A DNA stretch of 36,000 nucleotides from Chiloscyllium plagiosum (taxonomy: Eukaryota), in the NCBI RefSeq assembly GCF_004010195.1, contig NW_025213785.1, positions 1 to 36,000 of the forward strand. The letters run 5' to 3'. The notes below the pieces were generated by a model, which was not told the DNA's origin, searched no databases, and was given only the letters and a program-made list of their open reading frames with translations. Position numbers and translations under genes: made by a program. Shown piece by piece: positions 5,157 through 34,575 of this stretch. Every line of letters begins with the position of its first letter. Positions within the stretch are counted from its first letter, which is position 1.

Positions 5157-5276
5157 ATGTGGATAGATAGCTGTGCTACCAACCTATCCTGCCACTGCAA
5201 AATGATTTGACGTGGAGTTGAAGCTATTTCAACACTTGCCTACTTCCACTGCTGGCCCTGCAGCAACCTATAACTT

Positions 5277-6508
5277 ATTGTGGTTCTGTTCGCCGAGCTG
5301 GGAATTTGTGTTGCAGACGTTCNNNNNNNNNNNNNNNNNGCGCTTCTGTGATCTTTCCTCCGGCATTTGTACTGGTTTGTATCTGCTGCTTCCGGTTGTC
5401 AGTTCCAGCTGTCCGCTGCAGTGGTCGGTATATAAGGTCCAGGTCAATGTGCTTATTGATTGAATCTGTCGATGAGTGCCAAGCGTCTAGGAATTCCATG
5501 GCTGTTCTCTGTTTGGCTTGGCCTATAATACTAGTGTTGTCCCAGTCGAACTCCTGTTGCTTGTCCTCTGCGTGTGTGGATACTAAAGATAGCTGGTCGT
5601 GTCGTTTCATGGCTAGTTGGTGTTCATGGATGAGGATCGTTAGCTGTCTTCCTGTTTGTCCTATGTAGTGTTTTGTGCAGTCCTTGCATGGGATTTTGTA
5701 CACTACATTGGTTTTGCTCATGCTGGGTATCGGGTCCTTTGTCCTGGTGAGTTGTTGTCTGAGTGTGGCTGTTGGTTTGTGTGCTGTTATGAGTCCTAGT
5801 GGTCGCAGTAGTCTGGCTGTCAGTTCGGAAATGCTCTTGATGTATGGTAGTGTGGCTAGTCCTTTGGGTTGTGGCATGTCCTTGTTGCGTTGTCTTTCCT
5901 TTAGGCATCTGTTGATGAAATTGCGGGCTATCCATTTTTGACGAATACATTGTATAGGTGTCCTTCTCCCTCTTTTTGCAGTTCTGGTGTACTGCAGTAT
6001 GTTGTGGCCCTTTTGAACAGAGTCTTGATGCAACTTCTTTTGTGTGTGTTGGGGCGGTTGCTTTCGTAGTTCAGGACTTGGTCTGTGTGTGTAGCTTTCC
6101 TGTATACCTTTATGGTGAATTCTCCATTAGGTGTTCTCATTACCATCACGTCTAGGAATGGGAGTTGGTTGTCCTTTTCTTCCTCTCTAGTCAATCGGAT
6201 TCCTGTGAGTGTAGCGTTGATGATCCGGTGTGTGTTCTCTATTTCTGTGTTCTTAATGATTACAAAGGTGTCATCCACATATCTGACCCAGAGTTTGGGT
6301 TGAATTTGCACCTTTGAACTCACAAACTTTGAAAACCTACGAGTGAGAGACCCTAAGACAAGCCAGTAAATGGGAATCCTGTGCCAACCGTCTAAGCGTC
6401 ACATATGAACAACACCTAGACAGGGGACGAAATGTCTGCAACACAAGCTCGCCGAACAGAACCACAACAACGAGCACCCGAGCTACAAATCTTCTCACAA
6501 ACTTTGAA
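5277..6508 (-). mobile_element. 5'-truncated Penelope-like retrotransposon (family B): RT C-terminal part + GIY-YIG endonuclease, frameshifted, with inverted pseudo-LTR
   Basis: ORF 5928-6323 has WVRYVDDTF and LPFLDV; ORF 5275-6033 has VVYKIPCKDCTKHYIGQTGRQL. 6427-6470 is an inverted copy of 5278-5322. TSD AACCTATAACTT at 5265-5276 and 6509-6520. Confidence 0.93.
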
Positions 6509-7107
6509 AACCTATAACTTGAATACTGAAGGACCATATTTTCCTGTTCTGACGCAGGTCTGATCATGTTAGACAGGATTTAACCATGAGGTGGGGGAAA
6601 AGGCAACCCTTAATCCCGGCACAGATGGTTTTGATGGTAGTAGGATATGGGGACAAGTTGCAAGTCTGCACCTAGCTGACGCAACATTGCTAGCTCCATT
6701 GCTGAAGTGGGCATTTCAGACCCTAGCCAGTTGCACGCAGAGACTAGCCTTGAAAGGTAACATGATTCACACAAACTCTGAGAGGTTGTGAAGCTTAGGC
6801 AACCGTGCTTTAGCGTCAAACCTCATCTACTAGGATGAAGTTGCTGCTAACTTCACGTGTCATAATGAAATGTTGCTTGACAAATTACAGATGTTTTTAA
6901 TTCAGGAAGTGATGGGGCTGTTGGTTTTGGAAAAGGTATGTCTATTAAGTTAAACAGCATTGCGAAATTGAAACAAATATTTATATGCAGTCAAATTCAT
7001 TATCTACAAGATAAAGTGTTATCCTGCTTACACAAAAGTGAACTTCAGATTTGACGGTATCAGTTAGACTCCATACGTTCATATTTTCAAATCGCAGAAT
7101 TCAGCCA

Positions 7108-8722
7108 TTGTCGAGAGTGTGGTGCTGGAAAAGCACAGCCGGTCAGGCAGCATCCGAGGAGCAGGAGAATTGATGTTTCGGGCAAAAGCCCTTCATAGAA
7201 ATGAGGAAACTGGTGAAATCCACACTGATGCCATGGAGTTGGAGGGTCCCAAGGCAGAAGATGTGGCATTCTTTCTCCAGGCATCATGTGGTTAGGGTGT
7301 GGTGATGGAGGAGGCCCAGGACCTGCATGTCCTCGGCAGAGTGGGAGGGAGAGTTGAAGTGTTCAGCCAGGGGGCGGTGGGGTTGGTTGGTGCAGGTGTT
7401 CCAGAGATGTTCTCTGAAGTGCTCTGCAAGGAGGCGTCCAGTCTCCCCAATGTAGAGGAGACCACATTGGGAGCAACAGATTTGGTAAATGACGTGTGGA
7501 AGTGGAGGTGAAACTTAAATGGATGAGGAACACTCCTTTGGGGTCTTGGACGGAGGTGAGGGGGGAGATGTGGGCGCAGGTTTTGCAATTCCTGCAATGG
7601 CAGAGGAAGGTGCCAGGAGGGGATGGTGGGTTGGTGGAGGTAACGGTCTTTACGGAAAGCAGATGGGGTGGGGAGGGAAATATATCTCTGGTGGTGGGGT
7701 CCACTTGTAGCTGACAGAAATGGCGGAGGATAATACATTGTATAAGGTGATTGGTGGGGTGGAAGGTGAGGACCGGGGGTTTTTGTCCTTGGTGCGGTTG
7801 GAGGGGTGGAGTTCAAGGGCAAAGGTGCGGGAAGTGGAAGAGATGCGCTGGAGGGCATCATCAACCATGTGGGAGGGAAAATTGTGGTCTTTAAAGAAGG
7901 AGGTCATCTGGTGTGTTCTGTGGTGGAATTGATCCTCCTGGAAGCAGATGCGGTGGAGGCAGAGGAATTGGGAATAAGGGATAGCATTTTTACAGGAGGT
8001 GGGGTGGGAGGAGATGTAGTCTAGGTAGCTGTGGGAGTTGGTGAGTTTGTAGAAGATGTCAGTGTTGAGTTGGTCACCATTGATGGAGATGGAGAGGTCC
8101 AGGAAGGGGAGAGAGGTGTCAGAGATAGTCCAGGTGAATCTAAGTTTGGGGTGGAATGTGTTGGTAAAGTTGATGAACTGTTCAACTTCCTTGGGGGAGC
8201 ACGAGGTGGCACCAATGCAGTCATCAATGTAGTGGAGTAAAAGGTGGGGAATGGTGCCAGTTTACGATGGACAGTACCACATAGCCGACAAAAAGACAGA
8301 CAAGTGCCCATTGCTATCCCTTTCATCTGGAGGGAGTAGGAGGATTCAAAGGAGAAATTTATTGACGGTGAGGACCAGTTCAGCCAAACAAATGAGAGTG
8401 TCAGTGGAAGGGTACTGGTAGGGATGTCATGGCAAATGAAGGTGTATAGGGACTGGATGTCCATGGTGAAGAAAGTCATTGGGGGCAAGGGAAACAAAAG
8501 TCTTGGAGGAGGTGGAGTATGTGTGGAGGTGGGATGGTGTCCCAAACGTATGTTCCTGGACCTGGGGGAATAGGATAGTATCAAGGTATGTGGAGATGAG
8601 TTCGGTGGGGCAGGAGCAGGCCGAGATGATGGGGTGGTATGGGGTTCCCGAACTGTGACGTTGGAAGCTGTGAGAGGAAATCCCCTGAGGTGATGAGGTT
8701 GCGTACGGTCTGGGAGATGATC
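7108..8722 (-). mobile_element. Degraded Penelope-like element (family A), RT + GIY-YIG remnants
   Basis: FTMDIQSLY and GIAMG motifs in ORF 8021-8584; homologous to 14076-16668; pseudo-LTR with degenerate hammerhead at 7108-7200. Confidence 0.9.
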
Positions 8723-8869
8723 AGTCTGCTTCAGTTTTATGTCATATTGTCAATCTCCTGTCTTTTTCTTCTTGTATCGCTGCACACATTCTGTCAAAAT
8801 AATAATCCAGTGCCCTCTTGAATTATTCAATTTAACTTGCTACAGGATTCATTCTGCCTACTGACCAAC

Positions 8870-14075: not shown

Positions 14076-16668
14076 ACCACCAACATCACTCAGCGGAACA
14101 CCAGCGACAAACACGCAGTCATTGCCGAAGACATCACAAACGTCACACGGAATGTCGCTTCAGCCCCCATGGATGCCACCAAATGCATCGCCTGCCCCGC
14201 CTGGCCCCCATGGTGTGTATTATTTCATTTTGGTAACGTCACCCATGCTGCCATAACCACACCCACTCCAGCGACTGTCTCCAGCCCTACACCAGGACCT
14301 CGGCCCCAACCCTGCCATGCCTTTACCATCCCCACAGACATCCCCCGCACTGAGGATGAACGATCAGTCCTCCTTAAAGGCGTCCTCTTCATCCCCCTAT
14401 GCTCCCAGATCAACGAATTCAACACGCATTGCAACATTGAATTATTCTTCCACTACATTTGCCCTCCGGGCTTACTTTTTCCATCAGGATTCCCACCAGC
14501 CCTCCGAGAACCCTTTCTCCCATGTCCAGCGTACTCCATCCACTTGGACACCTGGTACTGGTCACCGACCCTCGACCTCTTCATCTCCAACTGCCACTGC
14601 AACATTGACCGCTTCAACCTGTCCATCTCTTCACCCATTCCAACCTCTCATCCTTGCAACGTGCAGTCCTCCACTCCCGCTGCTCCAACCCCAACCTTGC
14701 CATCAAGCTAGCAGACAAGAGGGGAGTGCACCAATCTCTACACCGCTGAAGCCAGGTGCCAACTCAAAGACATCTCCTCCTACTGCCCCCTTTATCACGA
14801 CTTCACCTCCCATCACCAAACTATCATCTCCCAGACCATCCACAACCTCATCACCTCAGGTGATCTCCTATCCACAGCCTCCAACCTCATAGTCCGGGGA
14901 ATCTGCACCGCCCGGTTCAAACTCCACAAACCTGACTGCCCCAGTTGACCCATCATCTCCGCCTGCTCCTACCCCACCGAACTTATCTCCGCATAGCTTG
15001 ACACCATCCTGTCCCCCTTGGAGCAACATCTCTCCATATACATTCGGGACACCACGCACAGCCTCCACCTTCTCCATGACTTTCTGATCCCGGTCCCCAA
15101 TGTCTCATCTTCACCATGGACATCCAGTTCCTGTACCCGTCCATCTGCCATGATGAAGGTCTCCAAGCTTTGTTTCTTCCTTTTCTAGCGAACCAATCAA
15201 CGCACTCGTTCGATTGGTCCTCACCCTTAACAATTTCTCCTTCAAATCCTCCCACTTCCTTCAGACCAAGGGGTAGCCCATGGGCACCCGCATGGCCTCT
15301 GCTATGCATGCCTCTTTGTTAGGTGCGTGGAATAGTCCATCTTCCACAGTTACACCGCACCATTCTCCACCTTTTCCTCCACTACATTGATGGCTCTATC
15401 GACACCACATTGTGCTCCTACGAGGTGGTTGAACAGTTCATCAACTTAATGAACATCTTTCACCCTGATCTCAAGTTCACTTGGACCATCTCAGACCCCT
15501 CCCTTCCCTTCCTGGACCTCTCCATCTCCATTTCTGATGACCGACTCAACACAGATATCTACTTCAAACCCACCTACTCCTACCTAGACTACACCTCCTC
15601 CCATTGCCCCCCTGTAAAAATGCTATCTCTTATTTCCAATATCTCTGCCTCTACCCCATCTGCTCTCAGGAGGATTAATTCCACGCCAAAACATTCCAGA
15701 TGGCCTCCTACGTCAAGGACTGCAATTTCCCATCTCACATGGTCAACAATGCCCTCCAGCATATCTCCCCCACTTCCTGCACCTCTCCCCTTGAACCCCA
15801 CCCCTCCAATCGCAACAAGGACAGAACCCCCCTCCGGTCCTCACCTTCCACCCCACTAATCTCTGGATACAGTGCATCACCCTCCACCATTTCCACCACC
15901 TACAGTTAGACCCCTGCACCAGAGATATATTTCCCTCCCTACTCCTTTCGGCGTTCCACAGAGACTCTTCCCTCTGCGACTCCTCGTTAGGTCCATGCCT
16001 CCCACCAACCCACCCTCCACTCCAGGCACCTTCCCTTGCCATCACAAGAGGTGTAAAGCCTGTGCCCACACCTCCGCCCTCACCTCCATCCAAGGCCTCT
16101 AAGAATCCTTCCAGATCCAGCAGAGATTTTCGTCCACATACACGCACCTCATCTACTGTGTCTGCTGCTCTGAATGTGGTCTCCTCTACATTGGGGAGAC
16201 AGGATGCCAACTTGCAGAATGTTTCAGGAACCATCTCTGGGGCACATACACGCAACAATTCCACCGTCCTGTGGCTGACCACTTCAACTCCCCCTCCCAC
16301 TCTGCCAAGGGCATGCAATTCTTGGGCCGCCTCCACTGCCAAATCCTAGCCACCCGACGACTGGAGGAAGAACGCCTCATCTTCTGCCTTGAGTCCCATC
16401 TATCCGCTCCAACGTCCTCTCTGATCTATCACTTTCACCTCCACCTTCATCTACCTATTGTATTCCTAGCTACCTCCACCCCCCTCCAGCCCCAGCTTAT
16501 CACATTTATCTCTCAGCCCCCTTGCTCCCTCCCTCACCACATTCCTGCTGAAGAACTTATACTCAAAACATTGATTCTCCCGCTCCTCAGGTGCTGCTTG
16601 ACCTGCTGTGCTTTTCCAGGGTCATACTTTTGACTCTGATCTCCAGCATCTGCTGTCCTCACTTTCTC
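14076..16668 (+). mobile_element. Long degraded Penelope-like retrotransposon (family A): RT, GIY-YIG, terminal pseudo-LTR
   Basis: MDIQFLYPSI, HYIDG (YIDD variant), LPFLDLSI, LIYCVCCSECGLLYIGET (16148-16201), many frameshifts; TSD CTTGATGG at 14068-14075 and 16669-16676. Confidence 0.93.
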
Positions 16669-24634: not shown

Positions 24635-24833
24635 GGAGAAAGTGAGGGCTGCAGATGCTGGAGATCAGAGCTGAAAATGTGTTGCTGGAAAAGCGCAGCA
24701 AGTCAGGCAGCATCCAAGGAACAGGAGAATCGACGTTTCGGGCATAATTCCTGAAGAAGGGCTTATGCCCGAAACGTCGATTCTCCTGTTCCTTGGATGC
24801 TGCCTGACCTGCTGCGCTTTTCCAGCAACACAT
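24635..24833. mobile_element. Young palindromic pseudo-LTR pair (PLE family A)
   Basis: Near-perfect arms ~24673-24747 and ~24763-24837; TSD TTTCTCCATGAATA at 24621-24634 and 24834-24847. Confidence 0.92.
24747..24782 (+). ncRNA. Minimal hammerhead ribozyme motif (intact core)
   Basis: CUGAAGA-A-GGGC(UUAU)GCCC-GAAA-CGUC at 24751-24778, identical to 1577-1604. Confidence 0.8.
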
Positions 24834-26291
24834 TTTCTCCATGAATAAGCTACTTAAACTACACATCCCTGAACACAATGGGCAATTTAGCTTGGCCCAT
24901 CCACCAAACTGCACATCTTTGGACTGTGAGAGGAAACCCACACAGAGAGTGGGAGAGCATGCATGATCTATGCAGATAGTTGCCCAAGGAATCGAACCCG
25001 GATTTCTGGTCTGTAAGGTAGCTGTGCTTAACTACTGAGCCACTGTGCCACCAGTTGTCCAGTCATGTGAGCTAACTGGGCTGAAGGATATTGTATGGTA
25101 GGCATTGAATACCTGCAAATAATAAATGAATTATTTGGGCATGTTGTAATTGTTAGCACATGATGATATATGGACATTTGGCTGTTTGTTTATTTCTTTG
25201 TTTCAGATGTGTCCTTTTTGAAATTTCACAGTTCATTGTATGCCTTTGTAACCTCTGATAATCACCTGAAATATTAGGGACAAAAAGGCACTGCTGGCTC
25301 AGATTTCATACTAATCAGCTTGGAACATTAAGCATTCACTTTATTATAAATTAAACAACAGATTATTATGCAGCTCAGCTTGTTTGAGCTCTTTCGGATT
25401 TCTGTACAAATTTGACTGAAATTTAGATGTGTCAAGAGGCATATTTAATATGAACAATAATTTGTTTGAACCTTCAGACGGAGAATCTGTATTTTGTCTA
25501 TATAAAAGAAAGTCTTGGGGCCAGTTCAATATTTTGCCAACAATTGTGTTTTACAATTCTTGGAAATAATCCATTCTGAGTTTTATCGTGATCTACTTTA
25601 TGGTTAAACTATTTCTCCACAAAAGGCTAGCTTAGTTGAATATAAGTAATCCTAGACGACGTAGAATCTGACCTTCAGATTGGCAGGCACCATGTTTCTA
25701 TACACCTCCAGGCTTTTCCACATGGTACCTCATGCTGGTAAAGGTGGTAGTGTAGGTCTTCTAGGGTAGAAGCATTCCCAATGGTTTCGGGAACCTTTGA
25801 ATGAATGTCCCCAGGGCTCTGTATTAGAACCACAACAAATACAGCTTTACCAAAGTGTAGCTGGTACATGACTATGCCTGAATGATCATGGCATTAAATG
25901 CCCCCTGAATTCTAGCCCCTTGATAGTGACTAGAGTTTATCTGGCAGGCCTGCAAATAAACCAAAAAGCTTTATGTGCATGATGATCTGTGTAGGCTAGC
26001 CTGTCAAAATCCTCATTGGGGCCCTAATAGCTGAATTCTTCTGCAAACTCACTATTCTTAACAGCTGGCAAGTGAACTGTCCTCTCCATTTTCCTGGCTA
26101 TGGCTGTGCTTAGTGACTCCACTCTGTGTAGATTCTGACTCTATACTACTCACTAAGGTATGCGCTGTGCCAGAATATAAGCATGTGGCTGTGTTTGGAT
26201 CAGATGATTGTGCTTCTGTATCAATGTTACAGTATTGTTCTTGCCCTTTCCTCTGAGGCTCTTGCAGCTGGTCAGTATGATGTTGAGGTGG

Positions 26292-26478
26292 ACTTGGATG
26301 GACAAGATCAGAAGTCACATGACACCAGTTTAGACTCCAACAGGTTTATTTGAAATCACAAGTTTTCAGAGCACTGCACCCTCGTCAGGTCACATGTCAC
26401 CTGAGGAAGGAGCAACACTCTGAACGCTTATGATTTCAAATGAATCTATTAGAGTCTAAACTGATGTCATGTGACTTC
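26292..26478. mobile_element. Palindromic pseudo-LTR pair (PLE family C-related)
   Basis: 26308-26390 and 26398-26481 are imperfect inverted repeats, each with a degenerate hammerhead; similar to 31440-31550; TSD TGAGGTGG at 26284-26291 and 26479-26486. Confidence 0.82.
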
Positions 26479-26821
26479 TGAGGTGGTTAGTAGGCAGTGC
26501 TGGGGTATCTGAAAGCAGAAATGCAGAGGAGGAAGGTCTGGTGAGGGATGGCAAAAGAGATGAAAAGCAAGGAGCCCATGTTCACATTACAGAAGCTTGT
26601 ACTTCCTGTTAGGGAGAAGTATAACACTGAGGGTTTTCATGGGCAAAAACCTGAAACTTGTGGTAACCCTCCATCTTCTTGGCAATGCCGGATGTAAATG
26701 TCCCTTGCACTGCCAGTCCCAAGATGCTGAGCATGCCTCTGGTTTAACTCTGCATCCTGTGATCATTTGTTTTTGTTTTGGCATGTGAACATCCCTCGCA
26801 AAATGGTGAGCTGCCTTGTCC

Positions 26822-26860: not shown

Positions 26861-27329
26861 AGTCAGTGAGTGATTTGTAAGGTATTTGGGTGATGTGCCG
26901 AATAAACAAGAGTTATCTGAGGCAGCCTTCATTTGTGTGAGAATTATGCTGAGCAACTGAATGTTAGGCTTAAGTCCTGATTGTAATAAATTGGAGGTGA
27001 ATAAGTAATGGGGATGCAGTGCAGTGAGTTTTGAAGAGGGTAGGTGTGTGGTAGGTGCGAGATGTTAATGGCAAACACATTCATGAACTTTGGCTACTTG
27101 TGTGAGGTAATTGAAATTATTATAGTACTGTTGCTGGATTATTTGGATCAGACTCCTGGAATTGACCTGTTTACTTGCTCCCTCATCTCCTCTTCTGAGG
27201 GTTTTCCTCAAAGGGGATCAAGCCCTCTCTCCCTGCCACCAAGTGAAACCTGGTCTATCTTGTCTTGTCTTGTCAATCTCCTCGACTAAGGTTTCCAGCA
27301 TTGTAGCTGAGAAACCCAGACCCCTTTCT

Positions 27330-27620
27330 TTGGAGAAATTTAAATCATTCCTCATGTGGAAATACTGGAATTATCATTGGAGCAAGAGTCTCTGTTGGAT
27401 TTAAACAGACTGAGATAAACAGTGGCTGTAGAGATGTGCACAACCAGAAGAGAAGAAAATGTGAAAAGGTTTAAAAAGATAAACAACAAGTAATTAAAAG
27501 ACAAATGCCAAAAATTGTCCAAAACATTTCTGAAATAAGTTGAAGAATATAGGCATTTTCACTTTAGATTTGTAAACTGAGAATTTACTGAAAAACTTAT
27601 AAATTTTAAAAGTTTTCAAT
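27330..27620 (-). repeat. Left arm of long inverted duplication
   Basis: Reverse complement of 28909-29206. Confidence 0.97.
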
Positions 27621-28908
27621 ATGTGCAACATATATGCATCATCTGTTTAAACAGTGAAGACCAGCATTTCAATGACATTTTTGATTATCTTCTGGATCTG
27701 CTCATGATATTTTAACGGTCTATGTACCTGGGCGTCCGAGGGTCCTTGACCCTCCAATTTTAGCTATTTGGAGAATGCCCAGTTTTACCCCTCTTTTTAG
27801 GTTCAAACTAGATGACTTCATTTACATCCATTTCCCACAGTTTTACCTCATTCACCGAATCTTCCAATATCACTTTTGTAACATCCCACTTCTGTTTCCA
27901 CACATTATACTAATGCCTGTGCTTGTGTCAAAGGCAAATTTGAATATGCAGCTTTCTATCCCCTCACCTTTGTTATTAAAAAAATACGGTGAGTTGTTGA
28001 GCCACCAACACTGACACCTGCAGGACATTCTGTCAATTAGATACGAGTTGGGGCATCTCTTCCACAGAATGCAGTTGCGGCTGGATCAGTGAATATTTTC
28101 AAGCCTGAGTTCAACTTTTAATTTACAAAGGAGTCAAAAATTTCATATTGGCAACAGGGTTCTCACCTATTGGCTGGGGAACTGGTGTGAGACTCACATC
28201 ACCTCATTTAGGGAAGATCCACTGAAATTAAGTCGCCATTAGATAGATATCCAATTGGTTCTCTGATTTTCCGTGATTTAGAATTGCATTCAATGAGAGT
28301 TGACATTCAGTCAGAAGCCAGAAGCACTCCTTTCCTTGTCAGCACTCCTGGAAGTAATGGCTGCTGCTGGTCATTCATTTGCCAAAGGCCTAGGAAGAAG
28401 AGGGACCCAGGCAATGAGTGAGGGCAGGATGTGGGTGGTGGGAAAGTGGGTCAGCAGAAATGGCAAGCGTGGTTCACAGTGGACAGGTATCTTCCTTTCT
28501 GATGCTGGATCACTTAATTGAAGAGAACAAGGAACCCTGTCCCTGTCCATTCCCAATTTCAGGTCTCTCCTCTAAGCCTATTTTATTACAATTTCCTTTC
28601 CAACCCATGCTATCTCTCAGATGTATTCGCAGGAATTTCTTTCCACCTTGCTATCTCCCACAAGATTGAATGTTTTGTAATTTCCTCCTTAACACATTCT
28701 GCACCTATACCTTCTTTGCTCCTTCTGGAATTCATGGTCTAGAATTCCTCTTGACCCCTCTCCACTTCCTTCTCTTCTTTCAGACCCTTTTGCAGACCCT
28801 TTGGCAATCTTTTGTCACGTCCTCTATTATCTGCTTCGATTATTGTGAGATTGTACTTCTGCAAACCACTTTCTATGTTAGCACATTTTAGGAAAGTAAT
28901 GTAGGTTT

Positions 28909-29206
28909 ATTAAAAACTTTTAAAAATTAAAAGTGGGATGTTTTCCAGTAAATTCTCAGTTTACAGATCTAAAGTGAAAATGCCTGTATTCTTAAACTTA
29001 TTTCAGGAATGTCTTGGACAATTTTTGGCATTTGTTGTTTAATTACTTGTTGCTTATCTTTTTAAACCTTTTCACATTTTCTTCTCTTCTGGTTGTGCAC
29101 TTCTCTGCAGCCACTGTTTATCTCAGTCTGTTTAAATCCAACAGAGACTCTTGCTCCAATGATAATTCCAGTATTTCCACATGAGGAATGATTTAAATTT
29201 CTCCAA
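28909..29206 (+). repeat. Right arm of long inverted duplication
   Basis: Reverse complement of 27330-27620. Confidence 0.97.
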
Positions 29207-29227
29207 CTATGGCAAGAGACTTGAAGG
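29111..29227 (+). other. Candidate host exon, possibly carrying a start codon (MARDLK...)
   Basis: Long polypyrimidine tract 29056-29107 + CTGCAG acceptor; ACTATGG Kozak context (ATG 29209); GC-type donor GCAAGT 29228-29233; stops in all three frames upstream of the ATG. Confidence 0.45.
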
Positions 29228-29994
29228 GCAAGTCACTTGGGAATTCTTGTTTCAAATTGGGAGTTCAGCAATTAGTTGCTTATATTATCTTTGGACCATA
29301 TATTATCCATTGACGTTTAGTCAAAATTCTGTAGCTTTTAGTTAGGAAAATCTGTTAAAAGATACTTGAGAGTGGCATTAAGACAGTAAAGTGATAATGC
29401 ATGTGCTTTTGTTCAGGAAGAAGTTGCATTCCAATTCCAGTTATTAAATTTCTATTCTTGTTGCTATTTATTTTTCTGGCATTTTGTGCTGGCAACTAAG
29501 AATTGTATGTATTATTACCACCTTAATTATCCTTTTCTTAAAAAAAATGCAAGTGAGCCAGAAATGCTTTTGTTTTAAAAGATTTTGGGACTGAATAAGC
29601 TTAGCCATTGATTGGACTTGTTTATGAATTTGAGCCAAGTTTTCTCAGGGGAGTAGCCCTGAGTTTAACCAAACACAATTAAAACTTTTGATTTTCTGTT
29701 CGAAAATGTAATTGCTACTCAAGGTGTATTGTAAATCTTGAATGTAATGTCCCTACTGATCATGTTACTGTAAAAGAAAATTATGTTAACAATGCTGGGA
29801 TGTCTATCGACCCATATGGTACTCAATTTTTGCTACTTGCATTGTGAATCTAGATAATGTTATGAACCTGGATGTTTCCAAGACTTACACTAAAGTTTTA
29901 TTGGCAGCAGTAACGCTTTCTTTTTTTCTCGGATAATTGTCAAAAAACAGACTAATTCAACTAACAGGAAAATACTATGAAGGTTGGAAATTTG

Positions 29995-30123
29995 AAATAA
30001 AAGCAGAAATTGCTGGCAGCATCTGTGGAGAGAAATAGAGTTAGCATTTTGAGTCCAATATGACACTTCTCTCTCCACAGATACAGCCAGACCTGCTTAG
30101 TTTCTCCAACATTTTCTGTTTTT
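29995..30123. mobile_element. Degraded palindromic PLE-type pseudo-LTR pair
   Basis: ATCTGTGGAGAGA (30021) is inverted versus TCTCTCCACAGAT (30070); related to 12484-12578. Confidence 0.65.
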
Positions 30124-31424: not shown

Positions 31425-31670
31425 GATTCGGAGATGCCAGTGTTGGACTGGGGTGTACAAAGTTAAAAATCACACAACACCAGGTTATAGTCCAACAGGT
31501 TTAATTGGAAGCACACTAGCTTTCGGAGCGACGCTCCCTCATCAGGTGATTGTGGAGGGCTCGATCGTAACACAGAATTTATAGCAAAAATTTGCAGTGT
31601 GATGTAACTGAAATTATACATTGAAAAATTGATTGTCTGTTAAGCCTTTCATTTGTTAGAATACAGTGAT
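31425..31670 (-). mobile_element. PLE family C 3' terminal (pseudo-LTR) insertion within the LINE
   Basis: TSD AGGCAT(T/A)ACTAA at 31413-31424 and 31671-31682; contains a hammerhead. Confidence 0.82.
31514..31548 (-). ncRNA. Minimal hammerhead ribozyme motif (intact core)
   Basis: Minus strand CAC-CUGAUGA-G-GGAGC(GUC)GCUCC-GAAA-GCUA-GUG: helix I CAC/GUG, 5-bp helix II, palindromic AGCU helix III, CUA cleavage triplet. Confidence 0.85.
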
Positions 31671-33194: not shown

Positions 33195-33897
33195 GCTGAA
33201 AATGTGTTGCTGGAAAAGCGCAGCAGGTCAGGCAGCATCCAAGGAGCAAGAGAATCGACGTTTCGGGCATGAGCCCTTCTTCGGGAATGAGGAGGGTGTG
33301 CCGAGCAGGCTAAGATAAAAGGTAGGGAGGAGGGACTTGGGGGAGGGGCGTTGGAAATGCAATAGGTGGAAGGAAGTTAAGGTGAGGGTGATAGGTCAGA
33401 GTGGGGGTGGGGGAGGAGAGGTCAGGAAGAAGATTGCAGGTGCAGAAGGCGGTGCTGAGTTCGAGGGTTAGGACTGAGATAAGGTGGGGCGAGGGGAAAT
33501 AAGGAAACTGGAGAAATCTGAGTTCATCCCTTGTGGTTGGAGGGTTCCTAGGCGGAAGATAAGGCGCTCTTCCTCCAGCCGTCGTGTTGCTATGGTCTGG
33601 CGATGGAGGAGTCCAAGGACCTGTATGTCCGTGGTGGAGTGGGAGGGGGAGTTGAAGTGTTGAGCCACGGGGTGGTTGGATTGGTTGGTCCGGATGTCCC
33701 AGAGGTGTTCTCTGAAACGTTCTGCAAGTAGGCGGCTTGTCTCCCCAATATAGAGGAGGCCATATCAGGTGCAGCAGATGCAGTAAATGATGTGTGTGGA
33801 GGTGCAGGTGAATTTGTGGTGGATATGGAAAGATCCCTTTGGGCCTTGGAGGGAAGTAAGGGGGGAGGTGTGGGTGCAAGTTTTGCATTTCTTGCGG
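33195..33897 (-). mobile_element. Penelope-like element (family A) 3' part: GIY-YIG + pseudo-LTR
   Basis: Minus frame IIYCICCT*YGLLYIGETSRLLAERFREH; RRLEEERLIFRLGTLQPQGMN; hammerhead 33257-33284 with CUGA>CCGA change. Confidence 0.92.
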
Positions 33898-34575
33898 TCC
33901 ATATCCCTCCAAATATTTCTTATTTATACACATTTCAAAATTCTTTTAAATGTTATAACTGTACCCACATCCAACACTTCTTCTGAAAATTCATTCAACA
34001 TGAGAACCACTCTGTGTAAAAATAATTTGCCCCTTATGGCTTTATAAAATCCTTCTCCTCTGACCTTAGTCCCTCGTCTTGATATCCACCATCCTAGGGA
34101 AAGGACACCTTCCACTCACATTATCTGTACCCCTCATTATTTTATAAACCTCTATAAGGTCACCCCTTAAACTCCAACAGTCCAGTGAAAAATGTCCCAG
34201 CCTATCCAGCCTTTCCTTATAACTCAAGCCCTACATTCCTGGCAACATCCTGATAAATCTCTTCTGAACTGTCTCCAACTTAATAATATCCTTCCTATAC
34301 TAGGGCAGCCAGAACTGGACATGGTACTCCAGAAGAGGCCTCATCACTGTGCTGTACAACCTCAACATGATTTTCAAATGCTTATACTCAAAGGTCTGAG
34401 TAATGAAAGCAAGTGTGCTAAACGCCGCCTTAATCACTCTGTCTACACGTAACACAAATTTGAAAGAATTATGTACCTGAACCCCTTGGTCTCTGTTCTA
34501 TAACACCACCTAATGCCATACTTATGGTTGTACAAGTCCTGCACTTGTATTTTGTCACCAGAATGTAATACCTCA
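33898..34575 (-). mobile_element. CR1/HER1-type LINE 3' fragment
   Basis: Collinear with 10380-11050 (e.g. TTTTATAAACCTCTATAAGGTCACCCC, CCTGGCAACATCCT). Confidence 0.88.

Follow-up and report, generated by a model that had tools for sequence, protein, structure and literature searches.

Here, we identify a single-copy inverted duplication in Chiloscyllium plagiosum in which a putative intron end, its splice acceptor and most of a candidate exon are repeated in mirror orientation a short distance upstream. We confirm that this inverted repeat is real, that it is single-copy and that it represents a local duplication within the window, i.e., the whole stretch of 36,000 nt of DNA analyzed here. 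The right arm looks, from its conservation between species, like the working copy and the left arm, here called the mirror, like a derived copy. We give a probability of roughly one half to the reading that the two arms stay matched through occasional arm-to-arm gene conversion, and not through selection on the mirror, with the mirror predicted to pair with the exon when the pre-mRNA folds.

A single-copy inverted repeat shared by three species

Several lines of evidence support the reality of the repeat. The two arms (Table 1) align in inverted orientation over 299 columns with 93.0% identity, and the blastn E value of 8e-127 for the arm-to-arm match is beyond chance. A first-pass annotation, made from the letters of this DNA, had described an inverted duplication of ~290 bp with copies ~1.3 kb apart, and this description holds with the arm borders refined as in Table 1. 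The match is patchy along the arms. The outermost 99 nt of the mirror (27330-27428), corresponding to 96 nt of the candidate exon plus the CAG, pair perfectly, and the next 162 nt (27429-27590) carry 10 substitutions, which on the plus strand amount to five G-U, two A-C and three other mismatches; the inner arm end, beyond this stretch, holds a 1-nt and a 6-nt indel. The same pattern had been read by eye as a perfect 99 nt followed by about 11 intronic mismatches, the 11th being an A-C pair at 27591 in an ungapped register. For the perfect 99 nt at the outer end, the departure from expectation is only moderate (Fisher p 0.015): when 10 mismatches are scattered randomly over 261 sites, 99 consecutive matches arise at the outer end with a probability of 0.007 and anywhere with one of 0.084.

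Table 1. Features of the inverted repeat and of the sequence between and within its arms (window coordinates)
Feature	Position	Strand	Description
Mirror (left arm)	27330..27621	-	Inverted copy of intron end, acceptor and first 96 nt of candidate exon
Outer mirror	27330..27499	-	170 nt; 0 old arm-to-arm differences; 4 present differences are young (letters of X12, X16, X19)
Inner mirror	27500..27621	-	122 nt; all 6-7 old differences
Spacer (predicted loop)	27622..28907	.	1286 nt
Old LINE fragment	27655..28029	-	In spacer; profile of 20 copies, E 1e-45; reverse-transcriptase-like text on minus strand of other copies; presumably CR1
Right arm	28908..29206	+	Probable original: intron end, acceptor, 96 nt of candidate exon
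Candidate 3' splice site	29007..29110	+	102-nt AG-free zone, 70% pyrimidine, ending in CAG (29108-29110)
Candidate exon	29111..29227	+	117 nt; stops in all three frames
Candidate GC donor	29228..29233	+	AGG/GCAAGT; non-canonical; not covered by the duplex; unchanged in B and C

The arms had also been described as sequence not recognizable as a transposon, and the genome search bears this out. A query with the right arm against the 3.56-Gb genome gave two matches, both in the window and identical with the two arms; this search skips very common words, yet it returned both arms. In 383 kb of background sequence from 40 chromosomes, we found no single-copy inverted repeat of at least 100 nt and at least 85% identity with arms less than 5 kb apart, which bounds the rate of such repeats only below ~8 per Mb. 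The one inverted repeat in this background within the same thresholds was an interspersed repeat, and repeats of the background covered 0% of the arms. Because the genome search gave only these two copies, the arms are not transposon ends. Terminal inverted repeats of a transposon or MITE are also not supported by the outer junctions, where no target-site duplication is visible by eye and the junction sequences share nothing.

The arms were compared in 6 of 24 listed runs, among them X12 (organism B), X16 and X19 (organism C) and X5 (a second sample of organism A, the species of this window). In X12, two contigs cover the inner arm ends, one the left arm's together with its flank, the other the right arm's together with the spacer. 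A 170-nt contig adjoins both of them and stops precisely at 29206/27330, the point from which the left- and right-flank contigs branch. X16 has both flanks attached to the arm at this same position, the left flank runs into the arm in X19, and the loose ends (30 letters) of X12 and X16 match the window's 29207-29236. Both arms are thus present in B and C with the same outer breakpoint, and the duplication therefore predates these species. Because the runs from these two relatives are independent DNA data, an assembly artefact is excluded as well. That the window stands as its own 36-kb contig would fit an explanation of the arms as an artefact or as transposon termini, but arms that differ at 10 or more sites, that occur in independent runs of two other organisms and that have two copies genome-wide with no target-site duplication visible by eye leave this explanation with a negligible probability.

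Divergence of the flanks is 2.9% for B and 3.2% for C, the rates for both being derived from per-contig counts. Six of the 15 B differences at sites covered in both organisms are common to C, and the shared differences yield branch lengths of ~1.2, 1.7 and 2.1%, with ~1.2% as the neutral branch of the present lineage. The spacer in B has 45 differing letters in 1345 nt (~3%). In C, at least 1.1 kb of other sequence apparently begins at ~27770 (region 27770-28690) and interrupts the old LINE fragment; the depth of X19 over the spacer falls to 0.76 and then to 0, and the X19 contig record has 1348 nt. On these comparisons, the loop sequence is not conserved and changes neutrally. The B spacer also carries a 12-nt insertion after 28055.

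With regard to its origin, the locus consists of a segment bordered on either side by inverted copies of a non-repetitive sequence, an arrangement as compatible with a staggered-break inversion as with a template-switch insertion. The LINE fragment starts 20 to 30 nt into the spacer, and a split-repeat test detected no continuation of it in the left flank or arm. The T-over-A skew of the spacer has the same sign as that of the flanks, a weak hint against inversion of the spacer. The mirror lacks the ATG and the donor that come after the right arm, and we infer that it is the derived copy.

The window contains other inverted and repetitive elements. A common short repeat lies at 24673-24837 as two head-to-head copies with 80-nt arms that are 96% complementary and 5 nt apart, giving a second predicted hairpin. 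A 174-nt palindromic, MITE-like element at 26308-26481 (87-nt arms, 83%, no spacer) is related to a repeat at 31444-31547. The window begins (1-530) within the apparent 3' end of an ORF2-type frame with a T-rich tail, which we take to be of L1 type, and decayed reverse-transcriptase and endonuclease-like frames at 5275-6579, 7100-8750, 15100-16400 and 33300-33900 are presumably of Penelope type; the copy at 7.2-8.3 kb is inverted relative to that at 15.4-16.4 kb, with ~80% identity. Elsewhere in the genome, the non-adjacent contig G000:C100381 holds a nearly perfect tandem array of ~34 kb with a 52-nt period and 13-nt units.

The candidate exon and its mirror

The strong acceptor and candidate exon that had been proposed for the right arm stand in part. 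The AG-free pyrimidine zone before CAG 29110 is long, ranking 8th among 2255 plus-strand AGs; on a crude 16-nt matrix, the same CAG ranks only 120th of 2255, and the nearest plausible donor is the GC site after 29227, a stronger GT donor following after 29552. Three of the candidate exon's ATGs (29159, 29181 and 29188) lie inside the predicted duplex, and the fourth, at 29209 and in strong context, lies 2 nt outside it. On the plus strand, most of the unique segments nearby have more T than A, which is what a plus-strand intron would show, although the signal is weak and 2 of 15 segments outside the left arm are reversed. Within the spacer, a strong-scoring plus-strand acceptor at 28783 ranks 3rd of 2255 and an acceptor-donor pair lies at 27800-27988; these sites are too little conserved in B to be trusted.

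The host gene was not found via proteins, Pfam, Rfam or the literature. Protein searches with each of the three exon frames gave no match at E<=10, a search that is weak for a 6-codon start. None of 163 open frames (at least 45 aa, from non-repeat segments) reached the Pfam cut-off, with six sub-threshold hits disregarded; Rfam gave 0 matches, and the exon's peptide start had no occurrence in the literature searched. The contig stops at 36000, and its right end has no match among the other contigs. Single-cell polyA data, covering ~2% and ~6% of two runs, gave 80 partial reads, all on repeats, in one run and 0 reads in the other, a result that does not bear on expression either way. Positions 28500-30000 are partly present in 20 of the 24 listed runs, which cover three organisms and 7 studies and of which none is recorded as RNA.

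The right copy and the mirror differ in how they have changed. Over the exon and GC donor of the right copy (29111-29236) there are 0 changes in B or C, compared to 4.7 expected when merged contigs are allowed for (P 0.009). The only exon change on any arm contig is at 27338 on C's left-flank contig, and C's right-flank contig is unchanged. Among the letters listed, the only acceptor change is a C>T at 29108 in B, which turns CAG into TAG and keeps a YAG. The right element thus appears, in these alignments, to be conserved as an exon would be. By contrast, the mirror has six changes specific to this species (27429, 27435, 27483, 27570, 27603 and 27617), i.e., 6/292 or 2.1%, which is no lower than the neutral branch. 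Of these six, three face the acceptor or polypyrimidine tract and none faces the exon (P 0.09). Counting all changes opposite the exon, the mirror has 1 compared to 3.4 expected since the species split (P 0.15) and compared to ~5.8 expected since the duplication (P 0.02). These statistics on constraint and conversion come from small counts and unphased data, and the trend in them is toward a conserved right copy and a drifting mirror.

The age of the differences between the arms is also distributed unevenly. There are 6-7 old ones, namely those at 27500, 27523, 27542, 27550 and probably 27617 and the 1-nt and 6-nt indels, and all of them fall within the inner 122 nt; the outer 170 nt have none (one-sided P 0.008-0.016, also with the exon side frozen). 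Because the old differences are confined to the inner part, the outer part would have been homogenized or held before the species split and its mismatches gained since then in this lineage.

Gene conversion, selection and RNA pairing

Exon complementarity had been proposed to be kept by selection or by gene conversion. This idea retains support in that the outer part is more alike than its age predicts, but the mirror overall is not slower than neutral. For this patchy identity, episodic gene conversion fits best, and selection is also possible. A C-specific letter at 27431/29105 occurs in both C runs even though their contigs follow different arms at 27495-27550, and by our own estimate the odds are about four to one that it records one conversion event. 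The 29108 letter of B (pair 27428/29108) sits on a shared contig. Both may be conversions; both are also candidate compensatory changes and rest on merged contigs. Assembly of the public contigs may collapse the near-identical arms and lose one of the variants, and contig depths (12.3 seen vs 12.1 or 11.1, and 20.9 vs 25.2 or 22.4) do not settle such merging. Because of this, derived letters shared by both arms are suggested at most, and organism B is no proof of concerted evolution.

The scheme that we prefer is as follows. One repair or replication event, by template switch or staggered break, would have set a copy 1.3 kb upstream before the species split. Conversion would then now and then copy one arm onto the other; conversions that damage a working exon would be purged, so that the mirror would be reset toward the exon while the indel-bearing inner end escapes. 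In a plus-strand transcript holding both arms, the ~280-bp duplex is predicted to compete with recognition of the acceptor and to attract ADAR, and it would lower exon inclusion as a tolerated side effect. Two observations tell against the mirror as a passenger of conversion: the deficit of changes opposite the exon (1 vs ~5.8) is explained equally by selection, and so stable a duplex should carry a cost if the exon matters, yet it has persisted in three species.

The duplex itself is predicted to be long and stable. The arms pair with a predicted energy of -438.6 kcal/mol on the plus strand and -436.4 kcal/mol on the minus strand, and folds of 2.1 kb contain 256 (plus) and 281 (minus) arm-to-arm pairs; on the plus strand, the predicted duplex covers the acceptor and 96 of the 117 exon bases. 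The fold agrees with the proposed plus-strand pre-mRNA duplex, but neither the energies nor the G-U/A-C pattern favor the plus strand: five G-U compared to three A-C pairs give p 0.73 and no strand bias, and we rejected a wobble-pair bias as a sign of the transcribed strand. If both arms share a transcript, duplex formation is likely, because inverted Alu pairs less than 2 kb apart are edited and can alter splicing (PMC2533698).

The mirror could instead be a selected, built-in antisense element that tunes inclusion or ADAR editing of a start-codon exon, with conversion possibly keeping the match. It would pair with the acceptor and the three upstream AUGs and spare the main AUG and the donor. 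Retention of the mirror in three species, the persistence of the arms while the loop changes, the deficit opposite the exon since the duplication, the 256 arm-to-arm pairs and a 1.3-kb loop, which does not exceed the 2-kb limit described for inverted Alu pairs that undergo editing (PMC2533698), all speak for such a role. Strict selection for pairing is disfavored by the three species-specific mirror changes opposite the acceptor and tract and by a rate not below neutral. Two of these three young mismatches do not pair on the plus strand, the deficit since the split is not significant, and the wobble pairs lack a strand bias. The first-pass annotation had correctly placed the end of the duplicate 2 nt before the ATG at 29209, but with four ATGs in 117 nt an arm end near one of them is unremarkable. 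We regard a selected element as possible but somewhat unlikely. A bolder version, which we consider speculative and improbable, holds that a duplication of a vertebrate gene's own start-codon exon became an antisense switch. In this version, a ~280-bp duplex, renewed by conversion, would mask the acceptor together with the three upstream AUGs and leave the main AUG and the donor free; through pairing or ADAR editing it would decide on exon inclusion and on survival of the upstream frames. Shark genomes may contain such exon mirrors as a recurrent class.

Two further explanations would leave the RNA duplex out or make the spacer invertible. The arms might never be in one RNA, or the right element might be no exon but, e.g., an enhancer or part of a transcript starting inside the spacer, so that the repeat is a scar at the DNA level only. 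The lack of a host gene or second exon in our searches (0/163 open frames at the Pfam cut-off and no protein match in three frames), the middling acceptor score and the GC donor fit this view; the 102-nt AG-free pyrimidine zone, the YAG-preserving change in B, conservation that extends through the donor and, weakly, the T-over-A excess argue against it, and a promoter in the spacer was rejected because the spacer is not conserved. We think that a scar of this kind is unlikely. Alternatively, crossing-over within the identical outer part could invert the spacer together with the inner arm halves, conversion tracts keeping the outer part identical and either inner half being able to serve as the intron end. 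In X5, an 809-nt contig runs from the left flank into an arm that has the right-arm letter at all 10 listed sites and the right arm's inner end, and a contig of the left type is absent; the mirror keeps an intact CAG and a 102-nt AG-free zone; and recurrent inversion between human inverted repeats of 1.6-24 kb is documented (PMC3961182). The X5 contig reflects either an allele that is flipped or rearranged or the path taken by the assembler: a walk through the shared 99-nt node would yield an identical contig, only 0.69 of the region's words occur in X5, and the arms here are far shorter than the repeats treated in PMC3961182. We consider a flip switch highly improbable. In this region (27180-27720), X5 also has a second contig with 21 loose letters before 27646 that have no match in the window. 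Our preferred reading remains that of a duplication matched by occasional conversion.

Comparison with known inverted repeats

Most known cases of long duplexes covering splice sites involve transposon pairs or short conserved stems. Conserved complementary regions of the latter kind are short and deeply conserved, and exon-intron editing-complementary sequences form a related class. Complementary conserved regions are reported to control splicing in, e.g., BRD2/BRD3 and ATE1. Like these, the mirror is an intronic sequence complementary to a splice-relevant region and retained across species; unlike them, it is 290 nt long and clearly made by duplication, is seen in three species ~3% apart and changes near the neutral rate.

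Editing of inverted Alu pairs less than 2 kb apart, and their effects on splicing, are known from the NARF Alu exon and from a case of two Alus in an upstream intron (PMC2533698); such pairs can also cause exon skipping by looping out (PMC13019027). The present repeat resembles these pairs in being a ~300-nt inverted pair less than 2 kb apart, near or over a candidate exon, with a predicted long duplex as a candidate ADAR substrate. It differs from them in that its arms are single-copy and neither transposon-derived nor SINE copies, and from the loop-out cases in that one arm is the acceptor and the candidate exon itself, so that the predicted duplex covers the splice signal.

Breakpoints of staggered-break inversions carry inverted duplications (PMC1885836), and as in those scars inverted copies of non-repetitive sequence flank a segment here, whereas the segment is only 1.3 kb long and inversion relative to an ancestor is putative. 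Gene conversion and recurrent inversion between inverted repeats are the subject of PMC3961182; in common with the repeats described there, the arms here have a homogenized tract of a few hundred bases or less and one contig compatible with a flipped spacer, but they are 0.3 kb and not 1.6-24 kb long, and conversion and flipping are putative and come from unphased contigs. Judged from titles and abstract openings, the literature searched contained no precedent for a transposon-free inverted copy of an exon, which does not imply its absence from print.

Altogether, a transposon-free mirror of an exon's own acceptor in three species would provide a clean natural test of two questions: does a nearly perfect duplex of 280 bp block splicing in vivo, and can conversion alone keep two arms matched? 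A mirror under selection would show that new splice regulation can arise in a simple way. A neutral mirror would show that high identity between an exon and its mirror does not imply function.
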